Positions 43,846 through 44,565 of a stretch of 64,000 bases of DNA are shown here, piece after piece (the first letter of the stretch is position 1; every line of letters begins with the position of its first letter). Under the pieces are notes generated by a model, which was not told the DNA's origin, did not search any database, and saw only the letters and a program-made list of their open reading frames with translations. The stretch lies in the NCBI RefSeq assembly GCF_054482595.1, contig NZ_CM137008.1; one strand, given 5' to 3'. The translations under genes and the position numbers were made by a program.

Positions 43846-43938
43846 TGTTCACACTGTTCACCTCTGGTTTTTTATTAATAATTTCATGGTGATACAGGGT
43901 GAAGATACGGTGAAGGGTGAACAGTGGATTGTTCACCT
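43846..43938. promoter_or_regulatory. cluster of TGTTCACC-type iterons (P4 ori/crr-like)
   Basis: about six copies of TGTTCAC(C)/GGTGAACA in both orientations within 95 bp. Confidence 0.6.
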
Positions 43939-43989
43939 TGTGGCAATGGCCAGAAAGGAAAAGACCGGCTGTTGCCGGTCTGAGTGAGG

Positions 43990-44565
43990 TTATGTTGCTA
44001 CGGGTTCGTCGCATTTCGGTAGCCAGTCGCCGTAGCTTTCCTCTTTCAGCGACAGATTGGTTTGTATCCCCTGCTTAGTGTGCCGCTTCTCATAATTCAG
44101 GCCGTACTCTTTCAGCATCATGGGCAGCCCCAGCCCGAACATTTTCAGGCTGAGTACGTTCCTATACCCGTTAGCCTCCATATAGGCCAGATACGCGTGA
44201 TAGAGATATTTACGATAATTACGCGGGATGATGCTGGCATTCCCCATAAACATCCCGTTGGTCTGCGGGAGCATTTCCAGATAGCCGCAAAAATCAAACG
44301 TAGGGTCAGCATCGCGCTTGATGCTGAGCGCCTCGTCGGAATTCTGCTGTGACTGGAGCAGTGCGCAGGCTGCCATCGGGTCGCTGAACTTCTGCATGAG
44401 CTGGCGCACAATCACGGCCAGCTCGCGCGCAATTTTATCCCTGAGCTGCGGGTCGCGTTCCTCCGGCGCAATTTGCTCCGGGAAGTGAATAATCACCCGG
44501 CGACGTGACACACCACCGCTGCGGTCGGTGAAGCGCATGGGGTTATTGTTCACTGCCAGAATCAC
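43990..44565 (-). pseudogene. C-terminal remnant of a P4 alpha-type primase-helicase
   Basis: 191-aa ORF lacking the primase/helicase body; sits next to the iterons. Confidence 0.5.

Follow-up and report, generated by a model that had tools for sequence, protein, structure and literature searches.

In satellite P4, the C-terminal domain of the alpha protein binds type-1 iterons at two sites, ori and crr, both of which are required in cis for initiation at ori. The cis requirement of crr for replication is stated in the annotation of the P4 GenBank record (X51522), and a full-text literature search found no primary source on crr. In this record, positions 4291-4590 are labelled 'crr (cis required region for replication)' and comprise two 120-bp direct repeats, which are separated by about 60 bp and contain five 'ori type 1 repeats' each. 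The repeat at 4471-4590 ('crr 120bp direct repeat') is directly adjoined by the terminator t-alpha (4604-4628) and then by the alpha gene (4636). The ori region (9086-9809) lies between ORF88 and sid, and has additional type-2 repeats. Alpha itself consists of a primase, an SF3 helicase and a C-terminal winged helix (PMC2777425). In P4-like satellites that carry hotspots, the gene order is int, hotspot, cos, psu ... alpha, crr, att (PMC9122126; bioRxiv 10.64898/2026.02.27.708500). The interval between int and psu is the classical P4 defence hotspot (Rousset et al. 2022, PMC9122126), whereas the interval between the primase gene and att is a minor one that holds 7% of P4 systems, and elements with both hotspots filled are rare, amounting to about 1% of P4 elements (bioRxiv 10.64898/2026.02.27.708500).

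In this study we analysed a 64-kb stretch of DNA, hereafter called the window, which is a segment of the Escherichia coli chromosome with the neighbourhood ssrA ... ypjA ... ileY (PGAP). It contains a region that very probably represents the crr and the origin-binding tail of alpha from a decayed P4-like satellite, i.e., a remnant no longer able to replicate. We observed P4 homology and P4 architecture, a large deletion, further lesions and conservation in relatives, and nothing contradicts the identification of the region as a satellite remnant. Everything fits the known biology of P4, and the locus had previously been annotated as pseudogenes.

The iteron cluster next to the alpha fragment

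The original prediction described about six octamers in both orientations within 95 bp, immediately downstream of a 191-aa ORF resembling the C-terminus of a P4 alpha-type primase-helicase, and interpreted them as a relic replication origin. We confirmed the octamers themselves: three exact copies of TGTTCACC are located at 43855-43862 (+), 43916-43923 (-) and 43930-43937 (+), two copies with one mismatch at 43846-43853 (+, TGTTCACA) and 43898-43905 (-, GGTGAAGA), and a weak sixth copy with two mismatches at 43909-43916 (-), so that the five near-consensus octamers and the weaker one span 92 bp (43846-43937). This is the sole 100-bp stretch in the window that contains five octamers with at most one mismatch. 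In 300 Markov-simulated sequences with the dinucleotide make-up of the window, the maximum was three octamers per 100 bp, indicating that the observed density is beyond chance. The octamers are the type-1 iterons annotated in the P4 record, as had been proposed.

The alignment to P4 revealed the identity of the cluster. Window positions 43824-44660 (837 bp) align with P4 4472-5306 at 84% identity, an alignment that covers crr and alpha. Within it, a 120-bp repeat at 43823-43942 (+) is homologous to P4 4471-4590, and when taken alone, this proximal unit and P4 crr repeat 1 share 76% identity. Its five iterons (43846, 43855, 43898, 43916 and 43930) follow the order +,+,-,-,+ at positions homologous to those of P4 and with matching orientations, and the weak copy at 43909 (-) lies among them. 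The surroundings agree as well. The stop codon of alpha (43990) is followed first by a rho-independent terminator (43962-43981, -) and then by the repeat (43823-43942), which is the order seen in P4 (4636, 4604-4628 and 4471-4590, respectively). The terminator consists of an 8-bp stem with a T-rich tail, aligns with P4 t-alpha, and lies within the 52 bp between the alpha stop codon and the end of the nearest octamer. The P4-homologous octamer positions and the identical orientations identify the cluster, as judged from the sequence, as the alpha-proximal crr repeat composed of P4 type-1 iterons.

We also considered that the cluster could be a relic of the P4 ori proper, i.e., a former replication start. 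The TGTTCACC octamer is indeed common to the window cluster and P4 ori, being the same 'ori type 1 repeat', and a 36-bp stretch of the window (43829-43863) aligns with P4 9395-9430 inside ori. However, the long 84% alignment leads to crr and alpha, the cluster adjoins the alpha terminator just as crr does in P4, and the pattern +,+,-,-,+ is the crr pattern, whereas the ori iterons of P4 (9310-9413) and of HKUOPY1 (L004), an intact relative of the element (15296-15399), are both arranged as -,-,-,+,-,-. Moreover, the ori of L004 falls within the 4.5 kb that are deleted from the window, and its ori segment had no match across the whole window. This makes an origin relic extremely unlikely: a comparison of iteron number and pattern with P4 ori and crr yields crr, and the true ori is gone. 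With regard to alpha, the iterons and the deletion, the original prediction was thus correct, but its origin label was imprecise. For annotation this implies that iterons directly downstream of a P4-type primase gene are crr and not ori, and that the orientation pattern separates the two.

The crr of the window shares with that of P4 its position after alpha and the terminator, the 120-bp unit, and the spacing and orientation of the iterons. Two units about 171-180 bp apart are seen in both, but in the window, where the period is 171 bp, the distal one is degenerate. By analogy with P4, alpha would bind the iterons of the window and crr would be required in cis. Unlike in P4, however, neither an ori to pair with nor the enzyme alpha is present here, and the crr should therefore be unable to function. 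The spacer between the two units contains a homopolymer of nine G residues (43814-43822), which is prone to slippage and has no obvious role; at this site the relatives show GCGCAGGGTGA, and L057, a satellite described below, a shorter G run.

The truncated alpha gene and the decay of the satellite

The 191-aa ORF (43990-44565, -) is part of a longer remnant, as in-frame alpha homology extends to 44658. The alpha pseudogene fragment (43990-44658, -) thus comprises 222 aa, corresponding to residues 556-777 of a 777-aa primase-helicase. Its assignment to the alpha C-terminus was borne out by 91.4% identity to P4 alpha residues ~590-777 (tblastn) and by the structure PDB 1KA8 ('putative P4-specific DNA primase'), all 100 residues of which align with fragment residues 116-215 (E=1e-61; 94 of 100 residues identical). 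This end-to-end match places a complete winged-helix origin-binding domain at 44014-44313 (-). The difference from P4 alpha lies in what precedes the domain, which in the window is joined to just the last ~115 preceding residues. Pfam returned only Pox_D5 and a weak DUF5906 tail for the fragment, and the NCBIfam primase_Cterm score of 59.9 was under the cutoff of 108.7; neither database detected in it an N-terminal primase with a zinc-binding domain or a complete SF3 helicase, and residues 556-777 are all that is left. Similarly, in strain THO-010, which has an identical locus, the PGAP annotation of the gene reads 'incomplete; missing N-terminus'.

The extent of the loss became evident from HKUOPY1 (L004) and MARGA_3 (L003), in which an intact P4-like satellite occupies the same ssrA site. 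In both, the order is int, defence hotspot, psu, delta, sid, a gene for an HTH regulator, an icd-like gene, a DUF5375 gene, the gene for the 777-aa alpha and crr, followed by ypjA. Two blocks of the window align with L004: 43660-44658 with L004 11002-11997, and 44652-45487 with L004 16498-17333. This means that the window lacks exactly 4,500 bp of L004. The blocks overlap by 7 bp at the junction (44652-44658), where a CACC-type microhomology is common to both junction sequences, and the last 56 nt of delta follow from the junction on (44652-44707, +). Lost with the deletion are residues 1-555 of alpha, the immunity and regulatory genes, the iteron cluster of ori, sid and all of delta but these 56 nt, in agreement with the original prediction, which had listed the body of the primase/helicase and sid, delta, cI and epsilon as apparently deleted. 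We found no copy of the missing 4.5-kb segment elsewhere in the window, and an Rfam scan of the window detected no P4 CI/C4 RNA, its single match being the tmRNA. The deletion is recent, since an IMG/VR element (L012, IMGVR_UViG_2917855067_000003) encodes an alpha that matches the fragment at 99.7% identity and has retained the N-terminal body. This alpha has a frameshift near residue 450, which is a separate inactivation of the same alpha lineage.

Other genes of the element have been damaged as well. The psu pseudogene (44723-45289, +) carries the nonsense mutation Q92* (CAG -> TAG at 44996-44998) when compared with L004 and P4 Psu, and the integrase pseudogene (48206-49399, -) carries W43* (49271-49273) when compared with the L004 integrase; PGAP reports an 'internal stop' in both. 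In contrast to the P4-like satellites described in the literature, the copy in the window is defective owing to the 4.5-kb deletion and the two nonsense codons, and it has no intact core set of int, psu, delta, sid, alpA-like regulator and alpha. The att and cos sites are present. The cos site (GGCGTGGCGGGGAGAGCAT; 45462-45480, +) is identical in L004 and aligns with the P4 cohesive end GGCGAGGCGGGGAAAGCAC, the homology to P4 extending to P4 position 11623. A perfect 28-bp direct repeat (GTGTACCTAAACGTGTACCAATTTTCTC) at 42614-42641 and 49450-49477 brackets an element of 6.86 kb, and the same 28-mer adjoins int/ssrA and ypjA in L003 and L004. The right copy is separated by 105 bp from the 3' end of ssrA (49583-49945, -; tmRNA, Rfam), which shows that the satellite att lies downstream of the tmRNA gene and not at its 3' end. 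A search for the ssrA 3' end itself as the att core revealed no significant repeat of it elsewhere in the window, and this candidate was rejected. The original prediction had included neither these att boundaries nor the premature stop codons of psu and int, nor the second, degenerate crr repeat described below.

The same chromosomal neighbourhood (ssrA ... ypjA ... ileY) in E. coli K-12 harbours CP4-57, which we take to be a P4-family-integrase island at ssrA with a gene content unlike that of the element in the window. Outside the satellite, the neighbouring autotransporter gene (37679-42382) is YpjA/EhaD according to PGAP; in MARGA_3, ypjA/ehaD is disrupted by an insertion of the IS3 family.

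The following course of events best accounts for these observations. In the intact satellite, the C-terminal winged helix of alpha would have bound the iterons at ori, in the interval between the regulatory genes and sid, and at crr. A single 4,500-bp deletion at the short microhomology then fused codon 556 of alpha to the final 56 nt of delta, and psu and int gained one nonsense codon each, either after or alongside the deletion. With ori and the enzymatic part of alpha gone, the crr remnant would be inert, as it lacks both an origin with which to cooperate and a helicase-primase that could be loaded. The element would thereby have become incapable of excision, replication and redirection of helper capsids, and the two defence cassettes alone have remained intact.

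The distal crr repeat and crr variation among relatives

A second 120-bp unit was detected at ~43652-43771 (+), which aligns with P4 crr repeat 1 and with the distal repeat of L004. Its scaffold is conserved (70% identity between window 43672-43767 and P4 4311-4406). However, all five octamer positions contain at least two mismatches (TGTTTATA, TGTTAACT, GGTGAGGA, AGTGAAAA and TCTTCCCC), and the distal unit, which differs in this from P4 crr, has no consensus octamer at all and does not display the five-iteron pattern +,+,-,-,+. Relative to L004, the distal unit has 21 differences over about 112 positions (about 19%), with the neighbouring spacer being equally diverged, whereas the proximal unit differs at 4 of 119 positions. 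Taken at face value, this contrast could be read as continued constraint on the proximal unit.

A different explanation was provided by L057/L092 (contig IMGVR_UViG_3300011362_000004), a complete P4-like satellite whose alpha ORF has the full length of 777 aa. Its distal repeat is 96.9% identical to that of the window, and four of the five octamers in it are mutated in the same way, i.e., four of the octamers lacking in the window have already been lost in L057. As the mutated unit coexists with full-length alpha in this satellite, the decay of the distal repeat is, on the evidence of the aligned repeats, older than the 4,500-bp deletion, and the L057 pattern shows that the low proximal and high distal divergence was inherited from the parental lineage. 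A loss of distal iterons by mutations targeted to them after the deletion was ruled out: 7 of the 21 substitutions relative to L004 are inside octamers, which make up about 35% of the positions, so that octamers are not enriched for changes; in addition, the spacer is equally diverged, and L057/L092 has the same unit together with a full-length alpha.

We then compared the two units across relatives. The five proximal iterons were found at fixed positions in all 10 annotated relatives, whereas six of them have a complete distal set, one has part of it, and in three it is absent or degenerate. Distal iterons are wanting in L005, L010 and L011, whose alpha frame is open. A similar picture emerged from 63 unique IMG/VR sequences located downstream of close alpha homologues: 58 contain a proximal unit with at least four iterons, and 12 a distal unit with at most one iteron. 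Elements in which an open alpha frame is combined with a lack of distal iterons are common. Thus, across about 70 P4-like elements the proximal repeat is almost invariant, and the distal one is missing or mutated in roughly one fifth of elements that otherwise look intact. A crr with a single good repeat is a common natural state, and the frequency of distal defects in such elements suggests that one crr repeat may be enough in nature. The crr of GF3-3 (L005) consists of one hybrid repeat, as would be generated by recombination between the two units.

Defence cargo and persistence of the remnant

In its gene order the copy in the window agrees with other P4-like satellites, and it has systems at both the int-psu and the primase-att hotspot, as reported for about 1% of P4 elements. 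The int-psu position is occupied by a Septu-like pair (45670-48203, +; PADLOC), both genes of which are intact: a PtuA-like ATPase of 560 aa (45670-47352, +; PDC-M01A E=1e-99, PtuA E=1e-73) and an HNH nuclease of 281 aa (47358-48203, +; PDC-M01B E=3e-37, PtuB E=2e-8). In relatives at ssrA this hotspot contains genes for an AAA ATPase and a DUF4435 protein, Drt3a/b, or a nuclease-helicase pair. On the other side of crr, a 1,023-bp cassette (42637-43659, -) replaces 92 bp of L004 (10910-11001) and carries an intact gene for a modification-dependent restriction endonuclease of the AbaSI/PvuRts1I family (42693-43574, -; PADLOC mREase_II E=4e-122, with the name assigned by PGAP). NCBIfam gave no match for either the AbaSI-like or the HNH protein. 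The AbaSI cassette is carried by 15 of 5,426 complete E. coli genomes and by one intact IMG/VR satellite, L057/L092, whose cassette beyond crr is 99.6% identical to that of the window.

The proximity of this cassette raises the question of whether the repeats serve as a transcription-factor operator of the AbaSI-family gene, the original prediction having itself named an operator of an adjacent gene as a competing reading. The AbaSI gene (start at 43574, -) has the cluster on its promoter side, about 270-360 bp upstream. However, P4 and relatives without an AbaSI gene have the same iterons at the same positions downstream of alpha, and the cassette was inserted later, on the far side of the distal repeat. 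This conservation, which is independent of the neighbouring gene, contradicts an operator and leaves it a negligible probability.

We also considered that the remnant might still be functional. A truncated alpha, if expressed, could act as a decoy or in a dominant-negative manner on its own or on incoming iterons, or the chromosomal iterons could titrate incoming alpha. Several observations are in line with this: the open frame spans the complete 1KA8 domain, the five proximal iterons are intact, and the relic is kept in 15 of 5,426 complete E. coli genomes, which come from different hosts and countries. In addition, the fragment differs from L004 by 22 synonymous and 3 non-synonymous codon differences. 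Nevertheless, we consider a functional remnant very unlikely. In the sequence, neither the GTG at 44565 nor the internal ATG is preceded by a Shine-Dalgarno motif, and a promoter scan gave no signal above chance, with one sigma-70-like hexamer pair upstream on the correct strand (44764-44735) against 1.3 expected from shuffles. Expression of the alpha fragment is thus not supported by the signals in the DNA. The synonymous excess reflects the history before the recent deletion, as the 99.7% identical alpha of L012 still has its body, and the 15 carrier genomes, being 99.8-100% identical over 43600-44660, have, given so recent a deletion, no power to detect selection after the truncation. Furthermore, psu and int are decaying within the same element, and the two intact defence cassettes explain the persistence of the relic more simply.

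A more specific proposal of this kind is that the truncated alpha, with its iteron-binding winged helix, and the proximal crr iterons have been domesticated as an anti-satellite exclusion or decoy device beside the defence cassettes. If so, incoming satellites would be prevented from replicating, either because the alpha remnant sits on their iterons or because it forms heterodimers with their alpha. We regard such a device as highly improbable. In our preferred interpretation, the region is a satellite remnant, probably without activity, in which the frame is still open, the DNA-binding domain complete and the proximal iteron set perfect. It would provide an example of satellite decay in the chromosome, whereby the genes for mobility and replication die and the defence cargo survives intact.

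At the site of the AbaSI cassette, other relatives carry retron St85 (L009) or a TIR-domain reverse transcriptase (L010). Between the start of the AbaSI gene and the distal crr repeat, the imported cassette contains a perfect palindrome (43617-43648) with a 13-bp stem and a 6-nt loop (CTTATGGCGATAG TGTTAC CTATCGCCATAAG), which could be an operator or a transcriptional insulator.
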